Of a DNA stretch of 64,000 bases, positions 12,324-53,028 are shown piece after piece. Location: assembly GCA_013360215.1 (NCBI GenBank), contig JABWCP010000006.1, forward strand, positions 40,470 to 104,469. The letters are read 5' to 3'. A program made the translations under genes and the position numbers. The notes under the pieces were generated by a model. It was not told the origin of the DNA and made no database searches. It saw only the letters and a program-made list of their open reading frames with translations. The first letter of the stretch is position 1; each line of letters starts with the position of its first letter. This DNA comes from a bacterium. GTDB taxonomy: Bacteria; CLD3; SB21.

Positions 12324-12335
12324 ACGATACGCCGC

Positions 12336-13622: not shown

Positions 13623-13629
13623 ATACGAC

Positions 13630-31256: not shown

Positions 31257-33692
31257 ATGAAAAAAATCATTCTCATATCATTATTATTTGCACAAAATTG
31301 GAATCCTATTTATTCTCAAGAACAAATTTTACTACCTTCGTTCACGTCAGGATTTGATAAACCATCGGGTTCTGGAGCGGTGATCTCGGCATCCATCGGT
31401 GTGATCGCTGCCGATACCAGTACGGGTTCGGGCGTTTCACTGGGCGGAGGATTTTTCGGTTATACGATCAATACGGTGCCGCCGACACGCGTTGCTAATT
31501 TTACCGCCAATCCGGTAGATACCACACAAGTGACACTGGCATGGCAAGCAAGTATAGGGGACACGTCAAGTTTTCGTTATTTCATATATCGCGGCGCTAC
31601 GCGTACCGGCGCTTATCAGCGTGTGGATTCGACGATCAGAACGCAACTGAATATCAATGATATAGGTCGTGTACGCAAAACAGTGTACTTTTATTACGTG
31701 ACTGCAAAAAATCGTTGGGGTACTTCTTACACATCAGACACGGCACAGGTCACGACCTACGGCGAACCCGATACGCCTTCCAGCTTTACGGCACAATTGG
31801 AGTCAGGCAAAGTCAATCGCATCCAGATGACATGGTCAGCTTCAGATTTTGACCCGTCGCAGTATAAAATCTACAGATCAAACCAAGCAACAACCGGTTT
31901 TGTTGCTATAGATTCTGTCCATAGCGGTACTTTAGTATTCACCGATAGCACACTGCAATTGGGTGCGACATACTACTACAATGTTCGGGCAAAGAATAGT
32001 TGGGGAGAGTCGGCACCCACCATCACGCGCAATGTTACATCCGGAAATCTGACGCTGGCCTATTCCGGTACACCGCCTACCAATGTCACAGAAAATCAAT
32101 CAGCGCTCGTACAGGCTACGATCAATGCGGATCGGGGCAATGGGGATATCGTGAAGCTGTATTATAAGGCCGGCGGCGCGGCTTCTTATTCGGATTCGGC
32201 AGATATGAATTATTCCGGAGGCGTATATTCATATTCGATTCCGTGGAATAAGATTGCTTCGCGCGGTGCCGTTTATTTTGTTCGTGCTCGTGTGGGTAAT
32301 TCAAACCAATCGGAATCTGAAAAACATATCACCGCTGCTATAACTTCCGGTGTGACCAAAAGTAATAGTCAGCCTGTAGCAGTAGCCAAAAAACATGACC
32401 TATCCAAATTTGAAATTATCTCCATTCCTCTCGACATCACCGGCGCAAAAGATGTGAATACAGTGCTTGGATCAATTTTTGGAGAAAAGGGCAAAGAGTG
32501 GGAAATATGGAACTATAGCAGCGGCAATCAGATTTTTACCGGTAATATTGCTTCCGGAAAAGGGTATTGGTTCATTACGACCAAAGAGGGTTCGCTTAAA
32601 ACCGGCGCGGCCAAAACTTTTACTACCGAAACGCCATACACTGTGAGCGTACAGTCAGGATGGAATATTATCGGCAATCCGTTCCATTTCGACGTTTCGA
32701 CGTCGGATATTATTCCCTCTTCCGGAGTCTCTATTGAAAATTCTAAATTCTACACTTGGGGCGTCAACAAAGATTGGCAGGAAGTAAGTTCGATCAAACC
32801 GTGGTTCGGTTACTACGTAAAAGTCATCGGCAATGGGAATTTGCTTATTTATCCTAAAGCGGCCGGGAGTGTTTCTAAACCTCTTATGAGAAGCGTTGCA
32901 TCGGATTTTGACAAAGGCGAATGGTTGATCAATATTCAAGCCGTAAGCGAAGAAATCGCAGATAAACATAATTTTATCGGTGCGCTTTCCCATGCGGATG
33001 ATGCCGTGGATGAAGAAGATTATTACGATACACCGTTACCGCCGGGCGATCAGCGTCTGCACCTCTATTTTCCGCATAAGGATTGGGGATCGAAGTCTGA
33101 TGACTACGGGATCGATATGCGCCGCGTATCGGAGGAAGGCCATACGTGGGATTTTGAAGTGTCAACGAATATCACGCGTTCTCATATAGTGATCGGCGAG
33201 CCGGTGAATCTGCCGGAAAATTTCAGTGTGCGCGTTATGGATACGGATTTGCGTGTAATGTACGATGCGAAGCAACAAAAAGAAATTCCTGTAATCCTGA
33301 CTTCCAAAACGAGCGACGCGCGACATTATAAAGTGCTCGTAGGAACGGAAGCATATATCAATGCGCACGATATGGGTTTTTTGGGCTTGCCTACAGGATT
33401 CGAATTAAATCAAAACTATCCCAATCCCTTTAATCCGACAACGACAATCAAGTTTGCGCTTCCCGTTGCATCAAAAATTGAAATTACGATTTATAATGCT
33501 TTAGGTCAGGTGGTGCGTAAGCTTGCAGATCGCGAGTATGCGGCGGGGTATCAGTTCGCCCAATGGGACGGAAAAGACAATCGTGGAAGCATGGCGGCGT
33601 CCGGAGTGTACATCTACCGTCTGACCGCACGCAGTTTAGACGGTTCAGGTAAAAGTTTTACGAAATCCCAAAAGATGCTGCTGATGAAGTGA
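31257..33692 (+). CDS. Secreted fibronectin-type-III repeat protein with T9SS (Por) C-terminal sorting domain
   Basis: Signal peptide; FN3-like modules (W/Y/T pattern: LAWQAS...YFYYVTAKN; MTWSAS...YYYNVRAKN). C-terminal NQNYPNPFNPTTTIKFALP...IYNALGQVV...GVYIYRL is a typical T9SS CTD. Confidence 0.75.
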   Translation: MKKIILISLLFAQNWNPIYSQEQILLPSFTSGFDKPSGSGAVISASIGVIAADTSTGSGVSLGGGFFGYTINTVPPTRVANFTANPVDTTQVTLAWQASIGDTSSFRYFIYRGATRTGAYQRVDSTIRTQLNINDIGRVRKTVYFYYVTAKNRWGTSYTSDTAQVTTYGEPDTPSSFTAQLESGKVNRIQMTWSASDFDPSQYKIYRSNQATTGFVAIDSVHSGTLVFTDSTLQLGATYYYNVRAKNSWGESAPTITRNVTSGNLTLAYSGTPPTNVTENQSALVQATINADRGNGDIVKLYYKAGGAASYSDSADMNYSGGVYSYSIPWNKIASRGAVYFVRARVGNSNQSESEKHITAAITSGVTKSNSQPVAVAKKHDLSKFEIISIPLDITGAKDVNTVLGSIFGEKGKEWEIWNYSSGNQIFTGNIASGKGYWFITTKEGSLKTGAAKTFTTETPYTVSVQSGWNIIGNPFHFDVSTSDIIPSSGVSIENSKFYTWGVNKDWQEVSSIKPWFGYYVKVIGNGNLLIYPKAAGSVSKPLMRSVASDFDKGEWLINIQAVSEEIADKHNFIGALSHADDAVDEEDYYDTPLPPGDQRLHLYFPHKDWGSKSDDYGIDMRRVSEEGHTWDFEVSTNITRSHIVIGEPVNLPENFSVRVMDTDLRVMYDAKQQKEIPVILTSKTSDARHYKVLVGTEAYINAHDMGFLGLPTGFELNQNYPNPFNPTTTIKFALPVASKIEITIYNALGQVVRKLADREYAAGYQFAQWDGKDNRGSMAASGVYIYRLTARSLDGSGKSFTKSQKMLLMK

Positions 33693-34148: not shown

Positions 34149-37100
34149 ATGATACACAACACGTTAATGCTATTCCGGTTATATTTTTTTTATTTGCTCT
34201 TAACAGGTTATCTATCGCAAATATGCGCACAGCCTGAAGCATATCATGTAGATAAGATCGGCCGTGAACACGGCCTTTTGCAAAACAGGGTAACGTGTCT
34301 TTTGCAAAGTCGCGACGGTCGGATATGGATCGGAACCCGTGAAGGGTTGCATTGTTACGATGGCTCACTAATGAAGTTGTACCTCTCGGATTCTCTGGCC
34401 GCATCACTATCGAGTAATTACATAACAGCGATTGCCGAAGACAGTCTGGAAAGTATATGGGTCGGCACCGAACGTGGCTTAAATCGTATAAATCGTTACT
34501 CCGGGGAGGTTTCCCGTCATCCGGTGATTACGGAAGATCAGCATTCAGTTTCAGATGGTCGCGTAACAAGTCTTTTTACTGATGCTCGCGGGCGTTTATG
34601 GGTCGGGACTTTGCAGGGCTTATTTCGGTTTTCGGAAAATGGCTTTATATCCTATCCACTAAAATGGCCAGACAAAACGGATTCGACGATATTGTTTCCT
34701 GTACGTGTCATGTATCAGCCGCTTCATAATCCGGATGAACTCTGGATCGGCACTACCGGACTAGGTATGCTCGTAATGGATATGGACAAAGGTGTTTATA
34801 CACGCGTAGCTGCGGTGACTACCCGCGCACCGACTGCTGATATTTCGACTGTATGGTCTATCTATAGTCAGGGAGACTCCGTCGTGTGGATGGGCACCCC
34901 CAATGGTCTTATCCGATGGGGGCGAACTTATAATCAATGGCGTTCATACCAGCCGCAAAAAACAGATCGGTATAGTATCAATGATTTACGCATACGATGT
35001 GTAACGACTGCCGATGCCTCGGGCTTATGGATCGGTACATCGAACGGAGGGTTAAATTATTTCGACATGGTTTCGGAACGTTTTTATCATATAGGCAATG
35101 ATCCCGATAATGCTGTTTTTTTTCGTGATTATGTCAATGCTTTAATCAAAACTTCTGACGGTACATTATGGGTCGGAACGCATGCTCATGAACTATATAA
35201 AATATCGAAAACGGCGATACAGTATAAGCATTATGCCACCAAAGACGGATTACCGCACGATATGGTGCGCTGCTTTTGGGAAGACATAGACAGCGCCGTC
35301 TGGGTAGGGACAGAAAATGGCGTAGCACGATGGGCCGAAGGCCAATTCAGCGTATTCCCGGTTGCTATGAGTAACTTACAAATACGGATGATCTACCGGG
35401 ATCGTAGGCAAAACTTATGGATCGGTTCCCGATTAGGAGGTATTTGGCGGCAAGATGCGAACAAAACGATAAGGCGATTTGTACAAAATAAAAATTTGCT
35501 CGGCTCGCTTTCGGGAAATCGCGTTTACACCTGTTACGAAGATACGCTGTCAGATGTACTGTGGGTAGGTACTTATAAAGGTGGATTAAACCGTTTTGAT
35601 TATAGCAGCGCACGCTTTGAACTCTACCGGTATGATTCATCACGATTTGGAAATTCTAATTACGAATTTGTCAATGCCATTGCTTTACAATCGGATTCCA
35701 TCGTGTGGCTGGGTACACGGCATCACGGATTGATTCGTTTCGATGTGCGCCGACGGCAGTTTCGTTATTTTTCCGGAGAACGTTATGGCGCCGAAGACAA
35801 TCATGTATATGGATTGTGCATTGATCGAAAAGGGTATTTATGGGTTGCGACCGGTAAAGGGCTTCAGCGATGGGACATGCAAAATCTGACACCCACGGTA
35901 TTTACCGTTAAGGACGGTTTGGCTAATGATATGGTGTATTCAGTGCAGGAAGATTTGCACGGTCGGATTTGGCTTACCAATAACAATGGTCTGACGGTGC
36001 TGCGTTGGGGTGATGAAAATCAAAAGCCATCGGTTACTAATTTTTCCGGCGGTAAAGATTTGCCTATACGTCAGTTCGAGCCCGGGTCGGGCTTCAGAAA
36101 AAAAGACGGTACTTTACTTTTTGGAGGCGTCGAAGGGTTTATTCATGTATTCCCGGAGAGCGTTGAAAAAAAAGATAATCTTCTTAGGCCCTATCTTACA
36201 CGGTTTGAAGTTTTTCAGGAAGCGTGGCCATTGGATACCGTGATAGATCGAAAAACGGCGATCGTACTCCCGTATGATAAAAATTTTTTTACTTTTCAGT
36301 TCTCAGCCATCGGGTTTCAGCGTTCCGATGAGTTGGAGTTTGAATATCTATTGGAAGGTTTAGATCGCCATTGGGTGACTGTACACCGAGGTCAGCGAGA
36401 TGTATCTTATGCCAATATTCGATCAGGCGAGTATTTCTTTACATTGCGGGCCAAGCTTGACGGTGCAATCGTGGGCATGCCCGCACGAATAAAGGTTATC
36501 GTTCAAACCGCATGGTGGGATACCATACTTTTTCGTCTATCTATAATTGTGATCGTTTTGATTTCCGGAGCCGGCATATTCCGAATGCAATCAAAGCGCA
36601 TGCATAAGAGAAACAAAGAACTCAGGGAATTATCCAATCATCTTGTGCAAGCCCGTGAATCCGAAAGGCTCAAAATAGCCCGCGAAATTCACGATGAATT
36701 AGGGCAGAGCCTTGCGGTGATGAAAATCGAAGCATCCGTGGTTGATGATGACCATACTTCCATAATACATCTGATCGACGAGGCCGCTCGAAAGGTCCAG
36801 TCTATTGCACTGGAACTTCGTCCGGCTATTTTAGACGACATCGGTTTATCGGCAGCAATAGCGGCGCATATGCGGGATATTATCTTAAAAACGAATATCC
36901 ATTGGCGGTTGGATATAAATGATGTAGAAGCATCCGACTTGGCTAATATTACGGCGTTCAGGATTTTCCAGGAGTGCGTGACCAATATCCTGCGCCATTC
37001 CAACGCCACCGAAGCTTCCGTAACGCTGAGTCAAACGCAAGGTAAACTATTTTTAACCGTCGATGATAACGGATCGGGAATCGATGAAATACATCTTACG

Positions 37101-37235
37101 AGCAGTAAATCAATCGGCCTGATCGGCATGCGTGAGCGTATCCGTGCTGTCGGCGGTCATATTTTTATCAAAACGGCTGTCGGACAGGGAACCCATATCC
37201 GTGTTGAACTGCCATCAGAACCCGTGGAGTCATGA
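34149..37235 (+). CDS. Sensor histidine kinase with periplasmic beta-propeller (Reg_prop/Y_Y_Y-type) sensor, HisKA_3 and HATPase domains
   Basis: Signal peptide; many WVGT/WIGT propeller repeats; TM before ERLKIAREIHDELGQSL H-box (NarX-type); HATPase motifs DDNGSGI and GLIGMRER. Confidence 0.85.
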   Translation: MIHNTLMLFRLYFFYLLLTGYLSQICAQPEAYHVDKIGREHGLLQNRVTCLLQSRDGRIWIGTREGLHCYDGSLMKLYLSDSLAASLSSNYITAIAEDSLESIWVGTERGLNRINRYSGEVSRHPVITEDQHSVSDGRVTSLFTDARGRLWVGTLQGLFRFSENGFISYPLKWPDKTDSTILFPVRVMYQPLHNPDELWIGTTGLGMLVMDMDKGVYTRVAAVTTRAPTADISTVWSIYSQGDSVVWMGTPNGLIRWGRTYNQWRSYQPQKTDRYSINDLRIRCVTTADASGLWIGTSNGGLNYFDMVSERFYHIGNDPDNAVFFRDYVNALIKTSDGTLWVGTHAHELYKISKTAIQYKHYATKDGLPHDMVRCFWEDIDSAVWVGTENGVARWAEGQFSVFPVAMSNLQIRMIYRDRRQNLWIGSRLGGIWRQDANKTIRRFVQNKNLLGSLSGNRVYTCYEDTLSDVLWVGTYKGGLNRFDYSSARFELYRYDSSRFGNSNYEFVNAIALQSDSIVWLGTRHHGLIRFDVRRRQFRYFSGERYGAEDNHVYGLCIDRKGYLWVATGKGLQRWDMQNLTPTVFTVKDGLANDMVYSVQEDLHGRIWLTNNNGLTVLRWGDENQKPSVTNFSGGKDLPIRQFEPGSGFRKKDGTLLFGGVEGFIHVFPESVEKKDNLLRPYLTRFEVFQEAWPLDTVIDRKTAIVLPYDKNFFTFQFSAIGFQRSDELEFEYLLEGLDRHWVTVHRGQRDVSYANIRSGEYFFTLRAKLDGAIVGMPARIKVIVQTAWWDTILFRLSIIVIVLISGAGIFRMQSKRMHKRNKELRELSNHLVQARESERLKIAREIHDELGQSLAVMKIEASVVDDDHTSIIHLIDEAARKVQSIALELRPAILDDIGLSAAIAAHMRDIILKTNIHWRLDINDVEASDLANITAFRIFQECVTNILRHSNATEASVTLSQTQGKLFLTVDDNGSGIDEIHLTSSKSIGLIGMRERIRAVGGHIFIKTAVGQGTHIRVELPSEPVES

Positions 37236-37236
37236 T

Positions 37237-37857
37237 ATGTATGTGCTTATTGTAGATGATCATGCCGTTGTACGCTTTGGCGTTGAAAAAATATTGAGCG
37301 CCGAATTTAAAGAAGTACGTATTGACGAAGCATCCGACGGAGAAAAAGCTTTGGAGCTATTCAGAATTTCGGATTATGATCTTATTTTGCTTGATATGGC
37401 TCTACCCGGGCGCAATGGGTTTGATGTCCTTCGGCATATTAAGACTGAAAAACCGGATCAGCGTGTTTTGGTATTATCTATGCAGACACAGGAGGAGTAT
37501 GCCTTACGCGTGCTCAAGGCCGGTGCAAACGCTTTTGTCTGTAAGACATCACTGACGGATGAACTTATTGTAGCCATACATCGTGTAATGCGAGGCGGTA
37601 GATTTGTCTCCGCACCTATTGCCGAAGCCGTGACTGTATCATTTGGAACGGATGAGGTTATACACCGAAAACTCTCTCAGCGCGAATTTCAGGTGTTGTG
37701 CCTGATCGGTGGCGGGAAAACGGTAACTGAGATAGCGGACGAATTGTGCATCAGTGTAAAAACGGTCAGCACCTTACGTGAGCGCTTATTGAAAAAACTA
37801 GGACTGAATACCACGGCTGAAATCATACGTTATGCGATCGAGAATAAATTTGTCTGA
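37237..37857 (+). CDS. Response regulator, NarL/LuxR family
   Basis: MYVLIVDDH receiver; C-terminal LuxR HTH (LSQREFQVLCLIGGGKTVTEIADELCISVKTV). ATG lies 1 nt after the kinase stop codon. Confidence 0.85.
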   Translation: MYVLIVDDHAVVRFGVEKILSAEFKEVRIDEASDGEKALELFRISDYDLILLDMALPGRNGFDVLRHIKTEKPDQRVLVLSMQTQEEYALRVLKAGANAFVCKTSLTDELIVAIHRVMRGGRFVSAPIAEAVTVSFGTDEVIHRKLSQREFQVLCLIGGGKTVTEIADELCISVKTVSTLRERLLKKLGLNTTAEIIRYAIENKFV

Positions 37858-38011
37858 TTGATCTTTCCGCCTTTGTTTGCGATCATCAAATAGCTCTTAC
37901 CTGCAATGCTTAAAGAATGATGGCTTTAAATTCGTAGCGCCTACAGATTTTGATCAATTTCAGGTTTAATCCACGTCATTGATGACCTATCTATTTCTCC
38001 GGCAAAAAACA

Positions 38012-38055
38012 TGTAGGACAAACCCCGACAACAAAATCAGAGTTTGTCCTACATA
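38012..38055. other. Perfect 13-bp inverted repeat (hairpin) without a U-tail
   Basis: atgtaggacaaac-N18-gtttgtcctacat, ~155 bp downstream of the LuxR regulator gene. Confidence 0.4.
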
Positions 38056-38307
38056 CAAACCTATGCGCTTTTGTTATCTTATAGCATATTTAAATCATCC
38101 GATTTCCTAATCTCAGTTTAAGACAGGTGACTTTTGGCTGATCGTGAAATCAGAGAACGCTATGTCATACGTTTGTTGATTATTATTTTTACAGCGGCTT
38201 TGCTGATAATGATATATCTGCTTGTAAGGCTTTAGATTTGAAGAAAAATCCGAACACAACATGACGGATAAAATGAATATACAGGCGAACGAAAAGGTGG
38301 AATTGAA

Positions 38308-38628
38308 GTGAAAAACGAGAAATACGATACAACAAGAGAATTTGTAACGACGTTGAGCGAAATAATAGCTCAACCGGGTCATCATGTACTGGATAAAATT
38401 GTTTCCATTTGTTCACGATTAAGGGGTACGTACGTACCATCGGCAAAGTACGTTCTTCGCCAGAGCGCCATTCATCGTGTGATTGATTTGCACCATCAGG
38501 GCAAGTCGGTTCGTGAAATTACCGCTTCCGTTGGTTTAAAAAAATCTACCGTTTATAAAATTCTCAAAGAGCATCACTTCAATGTGTGCACCCTCAAAAA
38601 ACGAAACGCGGGAACTGTAACTGCATAG
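38308..38628 (+). CDS. Small HTH DNA-binding protein, paralog B (GTG start)
   Basis: 106 aa; GLKKSTVYKILK HTH; paralog of 28055..28360. AAGGTGG RBS upstream of GTG. Confidence 0.55.
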   Translation: MKNEKYDTTREFVTTLSEIIAQPGHHVLDKIVSICSRLRGTYVPSAKYVLRQSAIHRVIDLHHQGKSVREITASVGLKKSTVYKILKEHHFNVCTLKKRNAGTVTA

Positions 38629-38748
38629 TAGGAAAGTAGTTCAATCCGACCGATTAGATTCTGAACCGAATTTTTTAAATTATGGCGACTCTGTTTTTAT
38701 TCTGGTAACATTCGGCACTAATATCATTCTACAGCAAGTACCTATCAT

Positions 38749-38830
38749 ATACAAGGCCGGGATATTAATCTTGATAATAAACAAACCGATCTATATCAAA
38801 GGTTTAAGAAAAAGTATGATTAGTGCCTAA
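38749..38830. repeat. Right copy of the 72-bp direct repeat (remnant of amidohydrolase 3' end); candidate attR-like boundary
   Basis: 68/72 identical to 20279..20350 (roughly 94%). Followed by a diverged terminator-like hairpin at 38861..38890. Confidence 0.6.
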
Positions 38831-38987
38831 AGCTATGGGATAAGAATTTCATTTTAAGTATAAAAAGCGGGTTTAACCTCGCTTTTTTTTATTAAAAAAA
38901 TTTTCAGTTTGTAATAATTTAGTCAAAATTTTGCTTTTAAAGTTTTGATAAAACTTCGTTTATGAGGTGAAATTTTTTATGACAAAT

Positions 38988-39007
38988 TTATGACAATTAT
39001 CATAGGG
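38988..39007. promoter_or_regulatory. Operator-like motif TTATGACAATTATCATAGGG upstream of the multiheme cytochrome gene
   Basis: Near-palindrome ATGACAATTATCAT. Identical flanks TTTTATGACAATT / TCATAGGG recur at 40641..40660. Confidence 0.45.
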
Positions 39008-39080
39008 ATGGTTTGGTCGTGTGTTTATTTTATATGCGAGATTCAACTCCAAACCAATCCTAAGTAGGAGGTAAAAAGCG

Positions 39081-40430
39081 ATGAGAAGTAACTTGATGAG
39101 ATTTGCAGGCATCGTCGCACTACCATTAGTATTTTTAGCGTTTTTGTTTATCAATAGCTGCGAAGGCCCGAGAGGCCCCGCCGGAGCGGATGGCAAAGAT
39201 GGTACAAATGGCACAAATGGTACCGATGCAAACGAAACATGCAAAACATGCCACAATCCCAATGATGTGGATCGTATCAAAATTGAATTCCAGTTTTCCA
39301 AACATGAATACGGCGAAGCCGCTTTTGAAGAAGCCGGCAATACATCTTGCGCCGTATGCCACACGCAACAAGGATTCCTGTATGTTGTTCAGAACAATGT
39401 TCCGTCAACATTTACGTTGAATGCAGGTACCGGCAAGTACTCCAATAGTTATGCTACTATTTCTTCCCAGGCCTTAGGCGAAATTGGTTGCGGTACGTGC
39501 CATGCCAGTACGCATACGACGTATGGTGCTGCGGATACGGTATTAACGACGAATGCGGCTGTTGCGATGAATATGTGGAAAGGCAATAAGACGATCAATT
39601 TGGCTCAAGACAATGGTCGTTCTAATCTTTGCATCAAGTGCCATCAACCGCGTCCTATGACAAAGAGCACGACGCTCAGTAATGGCGATATCGTCAATTA
39701 TGATTCTTTAGCATTAGATCCGAATCGGATGTTCTATGATTCAACGACGGGTGCTTCCAATACGCATACCTATCCCAGCTATCGCATGCATGTGCACTAC
39801 GGTGTAGTAGGTGCTGTATTTGCAGGTATGGGTGGTGTAGAATTCACAGGATCTAAAACAGTTCAAAGTTCAACGCACACTTCCGTTGCGTCCTGCCAAG
39901 ATTGTCACATGGCGACGGTCAGTGGTCGTGGTGGCGGACACACATTTATGGTGCAGGGTAACTTTAATGGTTGCAATACCTCCGGTTGCCATACCGGCGT
40001 AAGTTCCAGCAACTCTACCTTGTGGACAAATCCTCGGAACACGATCAAAGGTTTGCTCAATACATTGGCTACGAAGATCAATGCGGCCGGCGGCGGAACA
40101 CCGATCCTCCACGCTGACAGTGATACTGAAACCAATTTGTGGGCAGGTTTGACGACAGGCAATTGGGATGGATATCTGAATATATATGATCCTTCATCCA
40201 ATCCCGGCGGGGCATGGAGAAATCCCAATCCAAGCGGCTCATGGACACAAGCTCAAAAAGATGCAAACTTAGCATTACCGAAGTTCCCATCGCTGAAGTA
40301 TGTACAAGTCGGTGCGATGATTAACTTCCAGTTTGCACTGAGAGAAGCCAGCCTCGGTATTCACAACTACAAATATTCGGAAGCTCTGCTGACGAATACG
40401 ATTGAAAAAATGACGGATGCAGGCTTTTAA
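39081..40430 (+). CDS. Multiheme cytochrome c lipoprotein with N-terminal collagen-like GXY stretch
   Basis: Lipobox FINSC; 7 consecutive GXY triplets (GPRGPAGADGKDGTNGTNGTD). Five CxxCH motifs (CKTCH, CAVCH, CGTCH, CIKCH, CQDCH) and one CNTSGCH (Cx4CH). TAGGAGG RBS. Confidence 0.8.
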   Translation: MRSNLMRFAGIVALPLVFLAFLFINSCEGPRGPAGADGKDGTNGTNGTDANETCKTCHNPNDVDRIKIEFQFSKHEYGEAAFEEAGNTSCAVCHTQQGFLYVVQNNVPSTFTLNAGTGKYSNSYATISSQALGEIGCGTCHASTHTTYGAADTVLTTNAAVAMNMWKGNKTINLAQDNGRSNLCIKCHQPRPMTKSTTLSNGDIVNYDSLALDPNRMFYDSTTGASNTHTYPSYRMHVHYGVVGAVFAGMGGVEFTGSKTVQSSTHTSVASCQDCHMATVSGRGGGHTFMVQGNFNGCNTSGCHTGVSSSNSTLWTNPRNTIKGLLNTLATKINAAGGGTPILHADSDTETNLWAGLTTGNWDGYLNIYDPSSNPGGAWRNPNPSGSWTQAQKDANLALPKFPSLKYVQVGAMINFQFALREASLGIHNYKYSEALLTNTIEKMTDAGF

Positions 40431-40455
40431 TTAGTACGATCGTTACGATTCTTCA

Positions 40456-40490
40456 AAGGTCGCTCGCTAAAACGAGCGACCTTATTTTTT
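40456..40490 (+). terminator. Rho-independent terminator
   Basis: aaggtcgctcg-ctaaaa-cgagcgacctt hairpin followed by a T run. Confidence 0.6.
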
Positions 40491-40640
40491 ATCTATTTTC
40501 CGCTTTGTTCCACAAATTTTAAGCAAAAACCTTCTGATGCTTAAAATCAAACGACCCATAAGTTGTTAAAACGCTGGTTACATCAGTTTGTTGACTGATG
40601 ATAATTAATGCAAAGTAATGCTGTAATTTTCTTTACAATT

Positions 40641-40660
40641 TTATGACAATTGTCATAGGG
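40641..40660. promoter_or_regulatory. Operator-like perfect palindrome ATGACAATTGTCAT upstream of the beta-barrel gene
   Basis: TTATGACAATTGTCATAGGG is shared (19/20) with 38988..39007. Confidence 0.45.
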
Positions 40661-40774
40661 TGTATTGCGACTTGGGCATATCTTTTGATGAAATAAGTGC
40701 CTTTCTGTATTTTTATTAGCTTTATTTTGACATATAATTTACGACGATTCATGGACTTGAAGCCTGAGGTTGCT

Positions 40775-42148
40775 ATGAATATCAAAAAAAGATTAGTTGG
40801 CTACTTGATAGTGTTGTGCGGCGCAGTCGTACTTTTTGACGCATCAGCCCAAACGCTTTCAACGCGGCTTTCGACATCGGTGTATTCCTGGGAAAATCAG
40901 TATGCGGATTCAACCACACAAAAAAGTTTTCGTGGTTATCAAACGGCGATTTTTCATGCCAACGGGATTTGGAAATCCAATATTTCGTTGCACGGATATG
41001 TAACCGGAAGTTATGATCTGGCCGGTGCGCGGCAGGACAATCCGGATTATCGCGTGTACAATCTTTATGCGCAGTGGAAATCCGATCCGACAAAAAATCA
41101 TCGTTGGGAAGCCCGCGTAGGGCGTCAGCAGGTTTATGCCGGTGTACGCGCACCCTCGATAGATGGTGTCCGTTACGACTTTTATAACGCCGACAAATAC
41201 GGATTTATGGCTTACTACGGTGCACTGCCTCCGGCCGATGGAACTGTAAAAATGGGGCGCCCGGCGGATCGTTCCGCGTTTGGTGCCAAGGTGATGACTT
41301 CCAAGTTGGCGCAAACTCATATGGCCCTAACGTATGTTGAACGACGCAGCATTGGTCAATATTACTATACGATCAATGAGCGCAACGCGGATACCCTCGT
41401 TTACAGTCCGGATTTGGATGAGCGGCTTATCGCTTTTGATGCCAATCGCAATTTTTTCGGAAAGATCAATTGGTTTTATAATGTGACGTACGATGCGTTG
41501 GCTTCCAACGTGCGTAAGATATCTACGGATGTGCAATTCCAACCGTTGCATACGCTGTGGTTTGCCGTACAGTATGCGTACCGCCGACCGGATCTTTATT
41601 ACAATACCATTTTTGCGAAGTTTGATGACATTGATGCCAATCAGGAACTGTGGGTGCGCGGAACGTATCAATTCAATACCGATTGGTCGTTTAACGGTGA
41701 ATATGCCAACGTATTTTACAAAATGAAAGACGCGTGGCGTTACGGTGCGGGTCTCACGTATCAACGTACCAACGTATCTTATCAATGGCGTTTGGGTTAT
41801 GGCGGCACGATCAAACAGATTTCGTTAAGTTCGTATTACCCTGTCCGTCGAAACATGTATTTGTATGGTGGGTTGACTTATGCTACATATGACATGAAAG
41901 ATGACATCACATCGAGCGATTTTTCGTCAAGCAGCACACAAGATATCTACCGTCAGGTATATCAATATACCAATAGTTCCATGACGGCCGTTCTGCGCTG
42001 CAATTATAATCTGATGCAGGCGATGAACGTGGATGTCGAAGGACAATACCTTTCGCAAAACATCAAAACATCGCCGGTTTTTGCCGGATCGAAATATGAC
42101 CTGCGCTTTTTTGTGCGCGCCAATTATTGGTTCTTCAATAAAATATAA
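40775..42148 (+). CDS. Outer-membrane beta-barrel (porin-like) protein
   Basis: Signal peptide (start set at MNIKKRL, ATG 40775); Y/W/G-rich amphipathic beta-strand pattern throughout. Sits between two multiheme cytochrome genes. Confidence 0.55.
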   Translation: MNIKKRLVGYLIVLCGAVVLFDASAQTLSTRLSTSVYSWENQYADSTTQKSFRGYQTAIFHANGIWKSNISLHGYVTGSYDLAGARQDNPDYRVYNLYAQWKSDPTKNHRWEARVGRQQVYAGVRAPSIDGVRYDFYNADKYGFMAYYGALPPADGTVKMGRPADRSAFGAKVMTSKLAQTHMALTYVERRSIGQYYYTINERNADTLVYSPDLDERLIAFDANRNFFGKINWFYNVTYDALASNVRKISTDVQFQPLHTLWFAVQYAYRRPDLYYNTIFAKFDDIDANQELWVRGTYQFNTDWSFNGEYANVFYKMKDAWRYGAGLTYQRTNVSYQWRLGYGGTIKQISLSSYYPVRRNMYLYGGLTYATYDMKDDITSSDFSSSSTQDIYRQVYQYTNSSMTAVLRCNYNLMQAMNVDVEGQYLSQNIKTSPVFAGSKYDLRFFVRANYWFFNKI

Positions 42149-42166
42149 CTTATAACGGACACTGGT

Positions 42167-43261
42167 ATGAAGAAATTACTCGGAATAATACTCATTACGG
42201 CGGTCGGACTCATGGCCGCTGCCTTGGTTTTCTTTCCTTCTTCGGAGCCGCTCAAAGCTTCGTCGCTGGTGAAAACTTCCGCTCAGATGCAAGATAAGAT
42301 CGGCAGCCGTTATGCGATTATATACAAAGAAGAGGATCGCTCCAAGCTGATCAAACACAGTCACAAGTTTCACGCCACTAAAGGCGGCGCTGAATGTAAA
42401 GACTGCCATGCTTCGATCACTTCTAGTGAAAAAGCGATGGACAGCAATCTTCCCAAAATGGATGCCTGCTACGAATGCCACGACAAAGAAACGACGGACT
42501 GTAAGCTCTGCCATCTTGAGCCCAAAGAACCGTATTCATCCTACAAAGCGCCCAAACGGGAATTGACCTTTAATCACAAGGCGCATCTCGGGATGAAAAA
42601 TGTAAATTGTGAAACCTGCCACAGCGAAATAACTAACAAAGCGTATACCGGCGCACGTACACTGCCTGCGATGGAGTCTTGTATGGGTTGCCATGACGGC
42701 GCACAGGCGAGCAATGATTGTAAAACTTGCCATACGGACATCCGTTTTATCAAACCTGCGGATCATATGGCCGGATTTATTCGTACGCATAAACACGAAG
42801 TGGCTACGCAAGGCGATGCCAACTGCCGCATGTGCCATAGCACCGAATCCTGCGAAGATTGCCATAATGGCGGTAATCTGAATAAAATGAAAAATAGAAA
42901 CGAATTCAGCCCGTCCGGTACACCGTCGGGTATGAGTGAAAATAGCAGTCAGATTATTAGTAAAGCCCATGCACTGGATTTCATTTTCACACACCGTTTT
43001 GATGCCAAGGCTAAAACTTCCGAATGTCAAACCTGCCACGAAGCTGAGAGTTTCTGTGTACAGTGCCACAATAATAATGATAAAATGTCTAAACCGGCTT
43101 GGCATAAGGTAGCTGGTTTTACGTCGGGTGTAGGCGGCGGTTTGCACGCTCAGTTAGCCAAAAAAGATATGGAAAACTGCGTAAGTTGCCATAACATCGA
43201 AGGGCAGGATCCGACTTGTTACACGTGTCATAAAGCCGATGGTTCACTTAAAAATTTCTGA
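42167..43261 (+). CDS. Dodecaheme cytochrome c (12 CxxCH), periplasmic/membrane-anchored
   Basis: 12 canonical CxxCH motifs in 364 aa, about one heme per 30 residues as in MtrA/OmaB-type cytochromes. N-terminal signal/anchor. Confidence 0.85.
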   Translation: MKKLLGIILITAVGLMAAALVFFPSSEPLKASSLVKTSAQMQDKIGSRYAIIYKEEDRSKLIKHSHKFHATKGGAECKDCHASITSSEKAMDSNLPKMDACYECHDKETTDCKLCHLEPKEPYSSYKAPKRELTFNHKAHLGMKNVNCETCHSEITNKAYTGARTLPAMESCMGCHDGAQASNDCKTCHTDIRFIKPADHMAGFIRTHKHEVATQGDANCRMCHSTESCEDCHNGGNLNKMKNRNEFSPSGTPSGMSENSSQIISKAHALDFIFTHRFDAKAKTSECQTCHEAESFCVQCHNNNDKMSKPAWHKVAGFTSGVGGGLHAQLAKKDMENCVSCHNIEGQDPTCYTCHKADGSLKNF

Positions 43262-43271
43262 GGACAGCCAA

Positions 43272-43655
43272 ATGAAAAAGAAAATATTAATAATAATGTT
43301 ATCCCTTTTGGCCTTCGTGGGCTGCAGCGAATCCGAAGATATTGGTAATGTACCCGGCCCACCGGATCCGCCAAAACCATACAGTTATGTAACCGACATA
43401 AAAGCCGTACTTGATGATGGATGTGCATCACCTTGTCATTCGACGGCTGTGAAGCTTGGAAATTATGATTTATCCACGTATGCCGGTGTTTTAGGAAATG
43501 GGTCCGATGCAACACCGAATGCTATACCCGGTGATTCGACCAGTCTTATTATCGTCAAATTAAAATCCGGACATCCTTCAGTTGATGTATCCAGGTTAGC
43601 GATGATATTGCAGTGGGTCTATCAGGATAGCTGCAAAGAGACACTGCCGGACTAA
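43272..43655 (+). CDS. Small lipoprotein with a single CASPCH (Cx3CH) motif
   Basis: Lipobox FVGCSES; GAGGA RBS; CASPCH possibly heme-binding. Confidence 0.4.
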   Translation: MKKKILIIMLSLLAFVGCSESEDIGNVPGPPDPPKPYSYVTDIKAVLDDGCASPCHSTAVKLGNYDLSTYAGVLGNGSDATPNAIPGDSTSLIIVKLKSGHPSVDVSRLAMILQWVYQDSCKETLPD

Positions 43656-43717: not shown

Positions 43718-45103
43718 AACTTTGTACAGCGCTAAACACGTCTGTCGTTCCTGATCCAGATCAATGATAGGATGCGGATAATGGCTGAATAATCCGTTTT
43801 GCCGTTTATCCGGGTCATGTATTTCACGAAGCGAAACATTTTCCAGCTTCGGTACCCATCGCCGAATATATACGGCATCCGGATCAAATTTTTTCCCTTG
43901 GGTCAGAGGATTAAAAATCCGAAAATACGGTGCAGCATCCACACCGGTACCGGCGGCCCATTGCCAGTTACCGTTATTGCTGGATAATTCATAGTCCAAC
44001 AGTTTTTCTGCAAAATACGCCTCGCCTTTACGCCAATCGACATGCAGATGTTTGACCAAAAATGAAGCCACGATCATCCGTACCCGATTGTGCATATATC
44101 CCGTTGCATTAAGTTCACGTATACCGGCATCCACGATGGGATAACCCGTATACCCTGATTTCCATGCTTCAAACCAATCTTCGCGATTAGGCCATACGAT
44201 GCGGTCAAACTGGGCTTGAAAACTACGGATTATGACGTGTGGGAAATGCCAAAGTATCATCATGAAAAATTCACGCCAGATGAGTTCTGACAAAAAAACT
44301 TTAGCCGCCGGCGCCTCATGTTTTGATAGAAAGTCTATAAGCTGGCGAACACTGATCGTACCAAAACGAAGGTGTGGCGCAAGGTGAGAGGTAGCGTTCA
44401 GTCCGGGCAAGTCGCGTTGTGTATCGTATTTTTCGAGGTAATCACCGGTAAATTGTGTCCATTGTTTTTGAGCGGCATCGGAACCGCCGTGTATGATATT
44501 TTCACGCTTAACAAACCCGATCTCTTGCAGCGAATGAATAAGCGGTAGCGACGAAATCAGAGGAGAAAATTTTTTCCATGATATGGATGTATTATCTGTT
44601 ATTGCATTCGGATAAGAATGGGTATACGTATTCAGCCATCGGTTTTTATAAGCAGTAAAAACTTTATAAGGCGTGCCGTCATCTTTTACGATTTCTGATT
44701 TTTCAAAAATGACCTGATCTTTAAAAGAGTGTACAAGGATTCCTTTTTGGGTTAATACCTCCGTTATCGCCGTATCGCGCGCGTTGGCATACGGCTCATA
44801 GTCGTGATTAAAGAATAATGCATCCGTTTTGTTTTCAGAAAATAGCTGCGGAATAACGACTTCTGGTTCACCGTAAAGTATATGTACGGTCGGCGCACCA
44901 TGGGCTTTCAATTTGTTTTGAAGATAGGTGAGCGATTCGTAAATAAAGCTCAATCGTCGGTCATCGGCCGGCAAACGATCCAAAATATGTTTGTCAAATA
45001 TAAAAATAAGTGAAACAAATTGGCTTGCCTTTATAGCGTGGAGAAGCGCCGTATTATCGTCTAATCGTAGATCCCGCCTTAACCAAACAATGCTGTGCTG
45101 CAT
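43715..45103 (-). CDS. phr: Deoxyribodipyrimidine photolyase / cryptochrome family
   Basis: MQHSIVWLRRDLRLDDNTAL N-terminus; FAD-binding region (WREFF, GYMHNRVRMIVASFL, WQWAAG). Start set at ATG 45101-45103. Confidence 0.85.
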   Translation of the reverse strand: MQHSIVWLRRDLRLDDNTALLHAIKASQFVSLIFIFDKHILDRLPADDRRLSFIYESLTYLQNKLKAHGAPTVHILYGEPEVVIPQLFSENKTDALFFNHDYEPYANARDTAITEVLTQKGILVHSFKDQVIFEKSEIVKDDGTPYKVFTAYKNRWLNTYTHSYPNAITDNTSISWKKFSPLISSLPLIHSLQEIGFVKRENIIHGGSDAAQKQWTQFTGDYLEKYDTQRDLPGLNATSHLAPHLRFGTISVRQLIDFLSKHEAPAAKVFLSELIWREFFMMILWHFPHVIIRSFQAQFDRIVWPNREDWFEAWKSGYTGYPIVDAGIRELNATGYMHNRVRMIVASFLVKHLHVDWRKGEAYFAEKLLDYELSSNNGNWQWAAGTGVDAAPYFRIFNPLTQGKKFDPDAVYIRRWVPKLENVSLREIHDPDKRQNGLFSHYPHPIIDLDQERQTCLALYKV

Positions 45104-45361
45104 GCATTTATCTTTTATTTTGAATTTAACTGTGTTCTTGCACTTGCTGTACAAGTTATCGTGCAAACCGAAACCGACGAACCGACCGTTACAATACATC
45201 AAAAACGGTCTGTGATTTTGCTACGAGCTGTGCATGGATGACCTTTTGTGCATGTAATATATAAAATATAATTGTTTAAAAAAACATCGCATATATTAAA
45301 CAATATTTCTTATTTTCAAAACACTTTTAGAAGTGTTTTTTATTGCTTACACTACCACGCT

Positions 45362-47194
45362 ATGATGTACAAAAATTTATCCGACTGTATTGCCGATTTG
45401 GAACGGCACGGTCATTTGATACGCGTTAATGAAGAAGTGGATCCCTATCTTGAGATGGCGGAGATCCAACGACGCGTATATCAAGAACAAGGTCCGGCAT
45501 TATTATTTACCCGCGTCAAAGGGTGTCGTTTCCCGGCTGTTTCCAATCTTTTTGGAACGATGGACCGAACGCGCTTTATGTTTCGCCATACGCTCGCGGC
45601 TGTGCAAAAACTGATCGAATTAAAAGTTGATCCGGCGAATCTGGCCAAACGCCCGTTGCGTTATGCTGGAGTTCCATTTTCAGCGTTGACGATGTTGCCA
45701 TGGAAAAAAAGCAACGGTGCGGTTTTAAAAAATACATGCCGTATCGGTGAGCTTCCGCAAATCACTTGTTGGCCCAAGGATGGCGGGCCGTTTGTCACAT
45801 TGCCGCAGGTTTACTCCGAACATCCGGATCACCCCGGATGGAAAATGTCCAATCTTGGCATGTACCGCATACAAATGGCCGGTAATCAGTATATCCAGGA
45901 TCGTGAGGTCGGCGGCCATTATCAGATTCATCGCGGTATCGGCGTGCACCATGCCGCCGCCATTCGTCGTGGTGAAAAGTTGCGTGTTAGCATTTTTGTC
46001 GGCGGTCCGCCTGCGCACACCTTGGCGGCGGTAATGCCCTTACCCGAAGGTTTATCCGAACTGATGTTTGCGGGTGTACTGACAGGACGGCGTTTTCGTT
46101 ATGGTTACCAAAACGGTCATGCGGTATCCATGGATGCTGATTTTGTGATTACGGGTACTATTGATACGCAAGCGACAAAACCGGAAGGTCCTTTTGGAGA
46201 TCACTTAGGTTACTACAGTCTCACGCACGACTATCCGTACATTGAGGTGGAGCAGGTGTATCACCGGGATGGCGCGGTATGGCCGTTTACCGTTGTCGGA
46301 CGCCCGCCGCAAGAGGATACATCGTTCGGGGATATTATTCATGAAATCACAGGGCCGGTTATACCTACGGTGATCGCCGGTTTGCATGGTGTCAATGCGG
46401 TGGACGGCGCGGGTGTTCATCCGCTGTTACTTGCGATCGGCAGCGAGCGTTATGTGCCTTACGGCGAACGTAAACCGCAGGAACTTCTTACTATCGCCAA
46501 TGCCATTCTCGGTCAGGGGCAACTTTCTTTGGCAAAGTATCTCTTCATCACCGCAAAAGAAGACGATCTGTCGCTTGATGTACATGATATTCCTAAATTT
46601 TTGCAACACGTACTTTCACGGGTGCGTTGGGAGGAGGATCTGCATTTTCAGACACGAACGACGATTGATACATTGGATTATTCAGGTTTCGGTTTTAATC
46701 AAGGGTCTAAAGTGGTGATAGCATCCGCGGGTAAAGTCCGTCGCTTATTGGCAAGTCAGGTGCCTTCGGAATTAAAATTACCGGAGGGTTTTTCCGATGC
46801 GCACGTTATTTTACCGGGCATTGTTGCCGTCAGAGGAGCCCAATATTCCGACCGCGTAGCCGCCCGAAAAGCCATTCGTGTTTTATGCGAATATTTGGAA
46901 CATCAGAGAGATTTGGAAAACTTGCCATTATGGATAGTTTGTGATGATGTGACGTTAGTCAAAGCACAACTCAACAATTTTCTGTGGGTGACTTTTACGC
47001 GTTCCGATCCGGCGGCTGATATGGACGGAGCGGGTGCTTTTGTGGAGGATAAACATTGGGGTTGCAGGGGACCTCTGGTTATTGACGCACGGATCAAACC
47101 GCATCACGCACCGCCGCTTATCGAAGATCCCGATGTCACGCGTCGTGTGGATGCATTGGCTGAAAAAGGAAAAAGTTTGTACGGTATTATTTAA
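45362..47194 (+). CDS. UbiD-family (prenylated-FMN-dependent) decarboxylase
   Basis: N-terminal DLRDFIADLE-like sequence LSDCIADLERHGHLIRVNEEVDP; ~610 aa UbiD-like. Confidence 0.7.
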   Translation: MMYKNLSDCIADLERHGHLIRVNEEVDPYLEMAEIQRRVYQEQGPALLFTRVKGCRFPAVSNLFGTMDRTRFMFRHTLAAVQKLIELKVDPANLAKRPLRYAGVPFSALTMLPWKKSNGAVLKNTCRIGELPQITCWPKDGGPFVTLPQVYSEHPDHPGWKMSNLGMYRIQMAGNQYIQDREVGGHYQIHRGIGVHHAAAIRRGEKLRVSIFVGGPPAHTLAAVMPLPEGLSELMFAGVLTGRRFRYGYQNGHAVSMDADFVITGTIDTQATKPEGPFGDHLGYYSLTHDYPYIEVEQVYHRDGAVWPFTVVGRPPQEDTSFGDIIHEITGPVIPTVIAGLHGVNAVDGAGVHPLLLAIGSERYVPYGERKPQELLTIANAILGQGQLSLAKYLFITAKEDDLSLDVHDIPKFLQHVLSRVRWEEDLHFQTRTTIDTLDYSGFGFNQGSKVVIASAGKVRRLLASQVPSELKLPEGFSDAHVILPGIVAVRGAQYSDRVAARKAIRVLCEYLEHQRDLENLPLWIVCDDVTLVKAQLNNFLWVTFTRSDPAADMDGAGAFVEDKHWGCRGPLVIDARIKPHHAPPLIEDPDVTRRVDALAEKGKSLYGII

Positions 47195-47231
47195 GTTTCG
47201 GATTCATTGAACGGTTAACTTTTGGAGCATC

Positions 47232-48026
47232 ATGGAAATCAATTGCCTGCACATTGCCGATATTTTTGCACAATCCGGTTTGGATATGGTCACAGAAACG
47301 CTGCCCAAACTCATCAAGGAACGTGACATTCATTTTGTTGTGGCAAACGGTGAAAATACGCTCGAAGGTAAAGGTATAACCGAAGGGCAATGCCAGCATC
47401 TTTTTAATCTCGGCGTACATGTGATCACCAGCGGTAACCATATTTGGGATCGAAAGAAAACATTTTATGCGGAAAACCCGTTGATTCAAAAATACTTACT
47501 TCGCCCGCTCAATTATCCTGTGGGCAATGAAGGTCGTGGTTCGACGGTATACGAATTAAAAAATGGCCTCAAAATCGGTGTGATCAATCTGCAAGGGCGA
47601 ACCTATATGTATGACATAGATTGCCCTTTTCGCGTCGGTGAACGCGAAATTGAAAAACTTCAGGATGAAACCAATATCATTATTGTAGATTTTCATGCGG
47701 AAGCGACCGCTGAAAAAATTGCGTTTCGTCATTATGTTGACGGGCGTGTGAGTGCTGTGATCGGGACACATACGCATGTACAAACGGCGGATGAAATGAT
47801 CACCCCATCCGGCACGGCGTATATTACCGATGCCGGTATGACGGGCCCGCACGACGGTGTGATCGGTATGCAAAAAGAGCCCACGGTAAAAAAATTTATA
47901 CTCCAAACGTACTTCAAATTTGAGCCCTCCAAAGGGGATGTGCGCTTTCACGGCTTGTTTTTTAAGGTTAATGTCGAAACCGGGCGTGCAACCTATGTCG
48001 AACGTGTGCGCATAGACAAACCATAA
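47232..48026 (+). CDS. YmdB-like metallophosphoesterase (TIGR00282 family)
   Basis: FVVANGEN...GNHIWD metallophosphatase motifs; 264 aa. Confidence 0.7.
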   Translation: MEINCLHIADIFAQSGLDMVTETLPKLIKERDIHFVVANGENTLEGKGITEGQCQHLFNLGVHVITSGNHIWDRKKTFYAENPLIQKYLLRPLNYPVGNEGRGSTVYELKNGLKIGVINLQGRTYMYDIDCPFRVGEREIEKLQDETNIIIVDFHAEATAEKIAFRHYVDGRVSAVIGTHTHVQTADEMITPSGTAYITDAGMTGPHDGVIGMQKEPTVKKFILQTYFKFEPSKGDVRFHGLFFKVNVETGRATYVERVRIDKP

Positions 48027-50947: not shown

Positions 50948-50968
50948 TATCTAACGATCAGTACAGCT

Positions 50969-51775: not shown

Positions 51776-51793
51776 TCAAATTATTTTGAGGAT

Positions 51794-53008: not shown

Positions 53009-53028
53009 AAGCATTTAAGAGGATTCAT

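Follow-up and report, generated by a model that had tools for sequence, protein, structure and literature searches.

We identified, in a 64-kb stretch of DNA from a bacterium of the CLD3 lineage (GenBank assembly GCA_013360215.1, contig JABWCP010000006.1, forward-strand positions 40,470 to 104,469; hereafter the window), a four-gene module that probably forms a porin–cytochrome conduit across the outer membrane. An outer-membrane barrel (gene B) would serve as the sheath, a dodecaheme cytochrome (gene C) as the wire, a hexaheme lipoprotein (gene A) as the outer cytochrome and a small monoheme lipoprotein (gene D) as the adaptor. Porin–cytochrome conduits allow Gram-negative bacteria to respire minerals, electrodes and partner cells, and to our knowledge the mechanistic understanding of them comes almost wholly from Shewanella and Geobacter. 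The concept of such a conduit is established; the four protein families found here are unannotated and strongly co-conserved, with B and C confined to uncultured lineages, and the porin–cytochrome assignment is supported by architecture and co-conservation and not by homology to Mtr. The module is a compact, sequence-novel example from an uncultured phylum-level lineage, and its outer cytochrome is assigned below, with moderate confidence, to the NrfA/OcwA fold, a type so far known from Gram-positive surfaces.

We read the list of open reading frames (ORFs) of the window and checked gene boundaries directly on the DNA, which confirmed the four adjacent + strand genes described by an earlier sequence-only reading of the same stretch: in the order A-B-C-D, a 449-aa lipoprotein with five CxxCH motifs and one Cx4CH motif, a 457-aa barrel, a 364-aa protein with 12 CxxCH motifs and a small lipoprotein with a CASPCH motif, all heme motifs being present in these numbers (Table 1). 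A six-frame scan of the full 64 kb returned CxxCH-bearing ORFs at five places only, with more than two motifs just in A and C, so the heme density of these two genes is not due to chance. The intergenic gaps are 18 nt between B and C and 10 nt between C and D, and a terminator-like hairpin sits between A and B-C-D. A strong hairpin with a T-rich tail follows the A stop in 10 of 10 loci examined (the window and nine others) in differing sequences, and A is predicted to be transcribed separately from B-C-D. A scan for sigma-70 promoters gave 14 sites against 15.1 expected in shuffled sequence, and hence no excess.

Table 1. Genes and signals of the module, in window coordinates.
Feature	Position	Strand	Remark
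Gene A: hexaheme c-type cytochrome lipoprotein, 449 aa	39081-40430	+	proposed outer (terminal) cytochrome
Intrinsic-terminator-like hairpin and T run	40456-40483	+	11-bp stem, 7 G-C pairs, starts 26 nt past A stop
Gene B: predicted outer-membrane beta-barrel, 457 aa	40775-42148	+	proposed conduit sheath
Gene C: dodecaheme c-type cytochrome, 364 aa	42167-43261	+	proposed heme wire inside B
Gene D: small monoheme cytochrome lipoprotein, 127 aa	43272-43655	+	proposed periplasmic-side adaptor or electron entry point

The coding sequence of B starts at an ATG preceded by GAGG 6 nt upstream (the program-made ORF began at GTG 40697). Its product carries a signal peptide that ends in ASA directly before QT and contains no CxxCH or CxnCH motif; it has no match in Pfam or NCBIfam, and PDB searches with the single sequence and with a B-family profile returned noise only. 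An AlphaFold2 model built with 18 homologs (predicted local distance difference test score (pLDDT) 80, predicted TM-score 0.69) is all-beta, with 22 long strands from residue 28, periplasmic turns of 2-6 residues and longer alternate loops (loop 5 has an additional hairpin, loop 10 a short helix), bearing out the earlier prediction that the protein starting at 40775 is a beta-barrel. Because the strands begin right after the signal peptide, B is modelled as a 22-strand outer-membrane barrel without a plug domain of its own. By simple geometry we estimate that its lumen is sized like those of TonB-dependent receptors, which hold a plug of ~150 residues, and would be ample for a c7-type heme module. 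Since a 22-strand barrel lacking a plug leaves a large pore, an occupant would be needed; an empty pore of this size would be expected to harm the cell.

Gene C encodes a protein with 12 CxxCH motifs and an N-terminal signal or anchor. It matches Pfam Cytochrome_C7 above the cut-off in two stretches (56.5 bits, E 2.5e-15), and its best PDB match is the GSU1996 dodecaheme (3ov0; E 3.2e-13, three stretches), followed by ActA subunits of Alternative Complex III. TIGR04257 reached 35.6 bits, under its 40-bit cut-off, and the DmsE/MtrA family TIGR03508 reached 21.3 bits against a cut-off of 192.2. All 12 motifs and 10 other histidines are invariant over 14 homologs at 32-57% identity. By sequence, C appears to be built of c7/c3-type repeats and resembles the elongated GSU1996.

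The close family of B comprises 18 clusters among 5.8 billion proteins and is present in 12 of 185,579 species-representative genomes, all of them metagenome-assembled genomes (MAGs) labelled 'bacterium' or 'uncultured Bacteroidota'. We examined B–C pairing in 12 genome loci and four metagenome or MAG loci of this close family and in the distant loci L014, L016 and L020-L023. C neighbours B in every one, down to 21-29% barrel identity and across CLD3, 'Bacteroidota' and Handelsmanbacteria MAGs, and the distant loci encode C-type cytochromes with 12-14 hemes that are 32-42% identical to the window C. The full A-B-C-D order is kept in every related locus with enough flank (uncultured CLD3 or 'Bacteroidota' MAGs), and the co-conservation on which the earlier proposal depended is thus borne out. 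A B-family profile recovered 553 representative clusters at E ≤ 1e-3, nearly all of 400-460 aa, whose named members are all 'hypothetical' and come from Handelsmanbacteria, Zixibacteria, Chitinivibrionia and Bacteroidota MAGs; those from Zixibacteria and Chitinivibrionia are sequence matches whose gene context lies outside the pairing count. Among named B relatives, taken from 20 distant representatives and a search with a profile of 16 distant barrels, there were no Geobacter or Ignavibacteria proteins.

The outer partner of the B–C pair varies across these loci. It is A, or a paralog 25-30% identical to A (L009-L011), a 9-heme lipoprotein with the acidic start GCEDDDDN (L020), a lipoprotein with an OmcB-type CxxxxCH/CxxCH domain at 76 bits (L022), or a 925-aa cytochrome with a type IX secretion system (T9SS) sorting tail accompanied by a lipoprotein containing a D-like domain (L023). 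Because B–C pairing is constant while the outer partner changes, the conserved core is B plus C and the surface component is exchangeable. The sequence-only reading had missed this division, and with it that A is widespread, swappable and followed by its own terminator. At two of the distant loci B and C are separated by other genes: in L014 by a 143-aa gene (11278-11709) whose product has a membrane anchor at its N-terminus and, in its N-terminal sequence, a likeness to CcmE-type heme chaperones that was judged by eye only, and in L021 by PhoU and PHO4 genes.

Seven relatives (L001, L003, L005, L006, L008, L009 and L015) also carry candidate inner-membrane partners. Directly 3' of the module they encode a c554-like tetraheme protein and, in most cases, a monoheme cytochrome, together with a 13-heme and a 19-heme protein, both of which are fusions to a dihaem cytochrome b of FdnI/HydC type, a membrane cytochrome of ~498 aa that has seven motifs and an N-terminus like that of NrfH/NapC, and then, where flank suffices, a Rieske protein and a cytochrome b. 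We take the multiheme/cytochrome b fusions to have the CbcL architecture of Geobacter and the NapC/NirT-like cytochrome to have that of ImcH; because none passes a curated cut-off, the likeness is one of architecture and not of family membership.

Protein A has the lipobox FINSC with Cys27 as lipid anchor, and its heme motifs are CKTCH, CAVCH, CGTCH, CIKCH, CQDCH and the Cx4CH motif CNTSGCH, the last of which is kept across 60 homologs. The sequence-only reading had called this protein decaheme-like, a description that falls with a count of six heme motifs. Directly after the lipobox Cys lies a Gly-X-Y, collagen-like run, GPRGPAGADGKDGTNGTNGTD, and the C-terminal part is predicted to form long helices. 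The Gly-X-Y segment (39159-39230, residues 27-50) opens with an invariant CEGPxGPAG, after which the number of Gly-X-Y triplets varies: ~3 in L019 (8001-9293), 7 in the window and ~9 in L005 (7471-8811); L018 (8001-9374) has the segment as well. It matches Pfam Collagen weakly (E 0.008) and could be a collagen-like or polyproline stalk, possibly also a trimerisation element.

As a single sequence A has no match in the PDB. Searched as a family profile, it matched OcwA (6i5b; E 8e-5) and Geobacter lovleyi NrfA (E 9e-4), and a Foldseek search with its AlphaFold model (pLDDT 77; weak at residues 26-79 and 278-297) again returned NrfA entries, though below significance. The nearest structures include OcwA and the Carboxydothermus ferrireducens S-layer cytochrome, with no MtrC or OmcA among the matches. 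In a hidden Markov model alignment, motifs 3-6 of A correspond to NrfA hemes 2-5 and motif 2 corresponds by spacing to the catalytic heme, yet it is CxxCH and not CxxCK, and the NrfA catalytic-His segment aligns with GGVEFTG of A. Six non-motif histidines are invariant (H75, H145, H239, H266, H287 and H428). With six motifs and six further invariant His, six bis-His hemes are possible, and the sequence is consistent with A carrying bis-His electron-transfer hemes throughout. NrfA family scores were 21.7 against a cut-off of 595 (NF008339), 16.6 against 692.5 (TIGR03152) and 21.3 against 24.1 (PF02335); PF22113 scored 28.9 bits, under its 30-bit cut-off, and the OmcB-type CxxxxCH/CxxCH domain (TIGR01904 / PF09698) had no match in A. 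We rejected an assignment to NrfA itself, given that all six motifs end in His, CxxCK is absent, scores fall far under the family cut-offs and the catalytic-His region is not conserved, and we rejected an OmcS-like hexaheme, since neither sequence nor fold searches returned OmcS. With moderate confidence we place A, with its six heme motifs, in the NrfA/OcwA structural superfamily, the fold likeness being remote. OcwA has the NrfA fold and serves a Gram-positive electrogen as its terminal reductase at the cell surface; both it and the C. ferrireducens S-layer cytochrome are proven cell-surface reductases of extracellular electron transfer (PMC6703420).

Homologs of A fall into at least 1200 clusters, the top 120 at 59-67% identity and many from Bacteroidales or Bacteroidia MAGs. 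In a census of A-bearing metagenomic contigs (32 contigs, each 9 kb or longer), B or C was a neighbour in none (0/32). A recurrent neighbour set comprised a Crp/Fnr-type regulator (27/32), a cytochrome b (23/32), a seven-heme cytochrome (21/32), a fused ResB/CcsA heme-attachment gene (21/32), a DUF5777 barrel of ~290 aa (19/32) and a D-like 125-aa monoheme lipoprotein (18/32). The set lies 3' of A on the same strand, as one co-directional operon, in L072, L083, L089, L095, L098 and L102; these loci, together with L029, L031, L035, L040, L050, L051, L053, L067, L068 and L078, and L017-L019, carry A with Bacteroidia-type neighbours. A, the D-like lipoprotein, DUF5777, the seven-heme protein and cytochrome b look like a candidate for a second envelope electron pathway, apparently undescribed so far; we found no literature on DUF5777. 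Two non-homologous sets, each combining a barrel, a multiheme cytochrome and a monoheme lipoprotein, thus occur with A, which we regard as independent support for its link to a trans-envelope electron path.

Gene D encodes a protein with the lipobox FVGC and a single heme motif (CASPCH, 43422-43439), and it is kept 3' of C in L001-L010, L015, L016 and L020. At family level D is classed by sequence as a putative PSCyt1/PccH-like monoheme lipoprotein: PSCyt1 (PF07635) matched 10 of 11 members (best 1.3e-5) and PccH (PF22297) 8 of 11 (best 1.2e-4), the window D itself scoring weakly (E 0.11, 13.6 bits against a 22-bit cut-off). The motif is conserved among orthologs but its Cys spacing varies: it is CxxCH in L003, L007, L010, L015, L016 and L020, whereas L001, L005, L006 and the window have Cx3CH, and L009 has Cx4CH. 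In most orthologs Gly-His occupies the presumed position of the distal ligand, which is Gly-Gly-Ser-Met in L016 and L020.

In the mechanism we propose, the 12-heme chain of C would be inserted in B and would, like MtrA within MtrB, move electrons between periplasm and cell surface. A, raised on its Gly-X-Y stalk, would act as an exchangeable terminal cytochrome on the outside, presumably exchanging electrons with an extracellular or insoluble partner, and D would join C to periplasmic or inner-membrane electron carriers. The quinol-pool end would, in relatives, be encoded next door by the two CbcL-architecture fusions and the ImcH-architecture cytochrome, and outward flow from such quinol-oxidising inner-membrane cytochromes is the more likely direction. 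The porin–cytochrome electron-transfer module first suggested for these genes is supported by the plug-less barrel, the B–C pairing, the synteny and the inner-membrane cytochromes of most relatives, and departs from that suggestion in an outer cytochrome that is not MtrC-like. Several observations weigh against a conduit. The sequence after the lipobox Cys of A shows no clear Bacteroidota lipoprotein export signal, and the assignments of the D family stay under curated cut-offs. The window contains none of the inner-membrane cytochrome genes of relatives (genes E-H), nor remnants of them by tblastn, and no cultured organisms occur among named family members. Finally, an NrfH-like cytochrome is found near A in 8 of the 32 census loci (including L035, L040, L051 and L053) and in L018, mostly immediately downstream, as in nrfHA.

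An NrfH-like cytochrome next to A in L018, L035, L040, L051 and L053 would fit an NrfHA-type system, in which A is a periplasmic NrfA-superfamily enzyme, fed by multiheme cytochromes, that reduces a soluble oxyanion of N or S, or else a detoxification substrate, B is a mere porin or an unrelated barrel, and no electrons cross the outer membrane. We judge this improbable. A is without CxxCK, its motif spaced like the NrfA catalytic heme is CxxCH, GGVEFTG replaces the catalytic-His region, and six extra invariant His are available for six hemes, with NCBIfam NrfA scores of 17-22 bits against cut-offs of 595-692. A periplasmic enzyme would also leave unexplained the plug-less B and its constant pairing with a 12-14-heme cytochrome, even where A is absent, as well as the T9SS-secreted and OmcB-type outer partners. 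It is very unlikely indeed that the adjacency is incidental, with B a generic diffusion or export porin and the cytochromes belonging to an unrelated periplasmic chain. Some B homologs do carry the automatic labels PF04453 (LptD), 'alginate export domain' or 'opacity protein-like', and B has no heme or recognised redox motif; however, the B–C pairing persists to 21-29% barrel identity across CLD3, 'Bacteroidota' and Handelsmanbacteria MAGs, only 18 nt separate the B stop from the C start in the window, and diffusion porins, with their 16-18 strands, are far smaller than a 22-strand barrel without a plug.

The same hardware could also run in reverse, taking up electrons from extracellular Fe(II), minerals, cathodes or a syntrophic partner in the manner of PioAB and MtoAB, and we hold this to be a minor possibility. 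Porin–cytochrome conduits of the MtoAB/PioAB type are reversible in principle; PccH, a family of Geobacter cytochromes linked to cathodic electron uptake, is matched by eight of the 11 D-family members; and a Rieske/cytochrome b complex lies 3' of the cluster in CLD3-type loci. However, both the PccH and the PSCyt1 matches are weak, the inner-membrane neighbours in relatives have the architecture of CbcL and ImcH, which serve outward electron flow in Geobacter, and a Crp/Fnr-type regulator, a kind of control typical of anaerobic respiratory induction, flanks A in 27 of 32 Bacteroidia loci. We accordingly keep a porin–cytochrome conduit, with electrons more probably flowing outward, as the preferred account of the module.

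A broader joint interpretation is tentative, and in our view possible but doubtful: that B–C forms a conduit lineage independent of Mtr and of Pcc/Ext, and that A is a surface reductase spread across Bacteroidota, docking to two conduits that are unrelated to each other. In its first part, B–C appears confined to CLD3, Zixibacteria, Chitinivibrionia, Handelsmanbacteria and 'Bacteroidota' MAGs, which we take to be the FCB group and neighbouring phyla. In its second, A, whose homologs form at least 1200 clusters and show 52-69% identity across Bacteroidia and CLD3, may be a common, stalk-mounted terminal oxidoreductase of the cell surface under Crp/Fnr control, which may dock onto B–C here and onto DUF5777, a 7-heme cytochrome and cytochrome b in Bacteroidia. 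Were this joint interpretation true, extracellular electron transfer would be widespread, and so far unrecognised, in sediment and digester Bacteroidota. If the module is confirmed, extracellular electron transfer in anoxic sediments, wetlands and digesters would have a wider reach, both taxonomic and ecological, and a small conduit for heterologous expression would become available. Marker surveys that rely on Pfam or NCBIfam family models may miss it.

The window and L010, which likewise carries A-B-C-D only, are syntenic on both flanks of the module, with ClpX-like, thiolase and ThiF genes on one side (11178-14877) and photolyase, UbiD and YmdB genes on the other (43721-48017). Between the ClpX-like gene and A, the window has ~24 kb (~15200-39000) that are missing from L010 (L010:7136-8553), where a 237-aa tetraheme gene is found in their place; the A types of the two loci differ (28-30% identity) despite their same position. 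This window-specific stretch, whose GC content is low (0.37-0.41) at 20-32 kb, encodes amidohydrolases, a TPR-CHAT protein (20742-23204, - strand) and an 811-aa protein with a T9SS tail (31257-33692), as well as a histidine kinase of the Reg_prop/Y_Y_Y type accompanied by a LuxR-type regulator (34149-37857). We considered these last two genes as regulators of the module and rejected them, as they are not conserved beside it in any related locus. A 1.2-kb AT-rich gap (37858-39080) 5' of A contains a hairpin with a 20-bp stem and T run (38009-38056, - strand), a 106-aa ORF with a transposase/resolvase-type helix-turn-helix (38308-38628) and a terminator-like hairpin (38862-38887, + strand). Farther 3', a small redox cluster separate from the module (50219-53751) begins with tandem dihaem CCP/MauG/RoxA-like cytochromes (50219-50947 and 50969-51775) and continues with a 404-aa protein without a Pfam match and a 240-aa protein with a CarboxypepD_reg-like domain, and a 483-aa NHL-repeat protein with one CxxCH lies at 61706-63157 (- strand).

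Comparison with described conduits separates the module from MtrCAB (6R2Q) in each of its parts. B is modelled with 22 strands against 26 in MtrB and has 457 aa against 649 in the solved chain, and it has no match to MtrB_PioB (PF11854), which sets it apart from MtoAB and PioAB as well; C is a 12-heme c7-repeat protein by sequence and not a DmsE/MtrA-family decaheme; and A is not a staggered-cross decaheme like MtrC and OmcA. We rejected Mtr membership on all three components (barrel, periplasmic cytochrome and outer cytochrome), and a Cyc2-type fused porin–cytochrome because the B polypeptide contains no heme motif. The comparison with Mtr and Cyc2 families that had been recommended for this locus returned neither an MtrB_PioB match in B nor a heme fused to it. 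The earlier remark that the barrel is much smaller than its counterparts holds for MtrB and not for the Geobacter Pcc porins, which at 18-22 strands are of the same size class (PMC4245776); the remark on gene order is correct, as the order does differ, but is not informative in itself.

The cytochromes have their nearest structural counterparts in other settings. OcwA of Thermincola potens (6I5B) and the C. ferrireducens S-layer undecaheme (6QVM) come from Gram-positive bacteria with no outer membrane or porin and carry 9 and 11 hemes against the 6 of A, which, unlike either, is lipid-anchored via its Gly-X-Y segment. Two of the OcwA hemes are open in their coordination and have His-His pockets; the invariant His of A, in contrast, are enough for six bis-His hemes. 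Relative to pentaheme NrfA, which works with NrfH, A has an extra N-terminal heme, a Cx4CH last motif and no CxxCK. C has twelve c-type hemes, as does the 'nanowire' cytochrome GSU1996 of Geobacter sulfurreducens (3OV0), and to judge by its sequence match it probably shares their arrangement in tandem c7-type triheme modules, at a low identity confined to the heme-module regions; GSU1996 is free in the periplasm and is not known to have a barrel associated with it, and distant relatives of C have 14 hemes.

In the literature on CLD3, DUF5777 and Bacteroidales multiheme lipoproteins we found no description of the A-B-C-D cluster, and we found no described system that combines a dodecaheme and a plug-less 22-strand barrel with a lipoprotein of NrfA/OcwA fold. 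The variant had been called undescribed, which holds for its sequence families; its architecture is known, with OmbB-like porin–cytochrome clusters already reported in the neighbouring Ignavibacteria (PMC7399161, PMC4245776), and a remote relationship of B to those porins is possible. A preprint describes sequence-divergent porin–multiheme clusters, including OcwA-like cytochromes, in Acidobacteriota and Verrucomicrobiota, so the field already expects such variants (bioRxiv 10.64898/2026.05.27.727921).

The module shares with the Pcc (OmbB-OmaB-OmcB) and Ext (ExtABCD, ExtEFG) systems of Geobacter its three-part build of a barrel without hemes, a multiheme cytochrome in the periplasm and a lipoprotein cytochrome at the outer membrane, and it follows the principle of Mtr as well. 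ExtA and ExtG are said, in work by Otero et al. from 2018, to be dodecaheme. Geobacter Pcc systems combine porins of 18-22 predicted strands, periplasmic cytochromes of 5-14 hemes and an outer lipoprotein cytochrome (PMC4245776), and the module fits this architecture with 22 modelled strands in B, 12 hemes in C, a lipobox and six hemes in A, and genes that are contiguous and co-conserved. Its relatives add further parallels, as they carry CbcL-like and ImcH-like inner-membrane partners like those of Geobacter systems, and the distant locus L022 is ordered, as in Pcc, barrel, periplasmic cytochrome and OmcB-type lipoprotein. The likeness to Pcc and Ext, their porins OmbB, ExtB, ExtE and ExtI included, is one of architecture. 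Unlike Pcc and Ext, the module has an additional monoheme PSCyt1/PccH-like lipoprotein (D), the order A-B-C-D with A apparently on its own transcript, and a hexaheme outer cytochrome that lacks the OmcB-type CxxxxCH/CxxCH domain and probably has an NrfA/OcwA-like fold.

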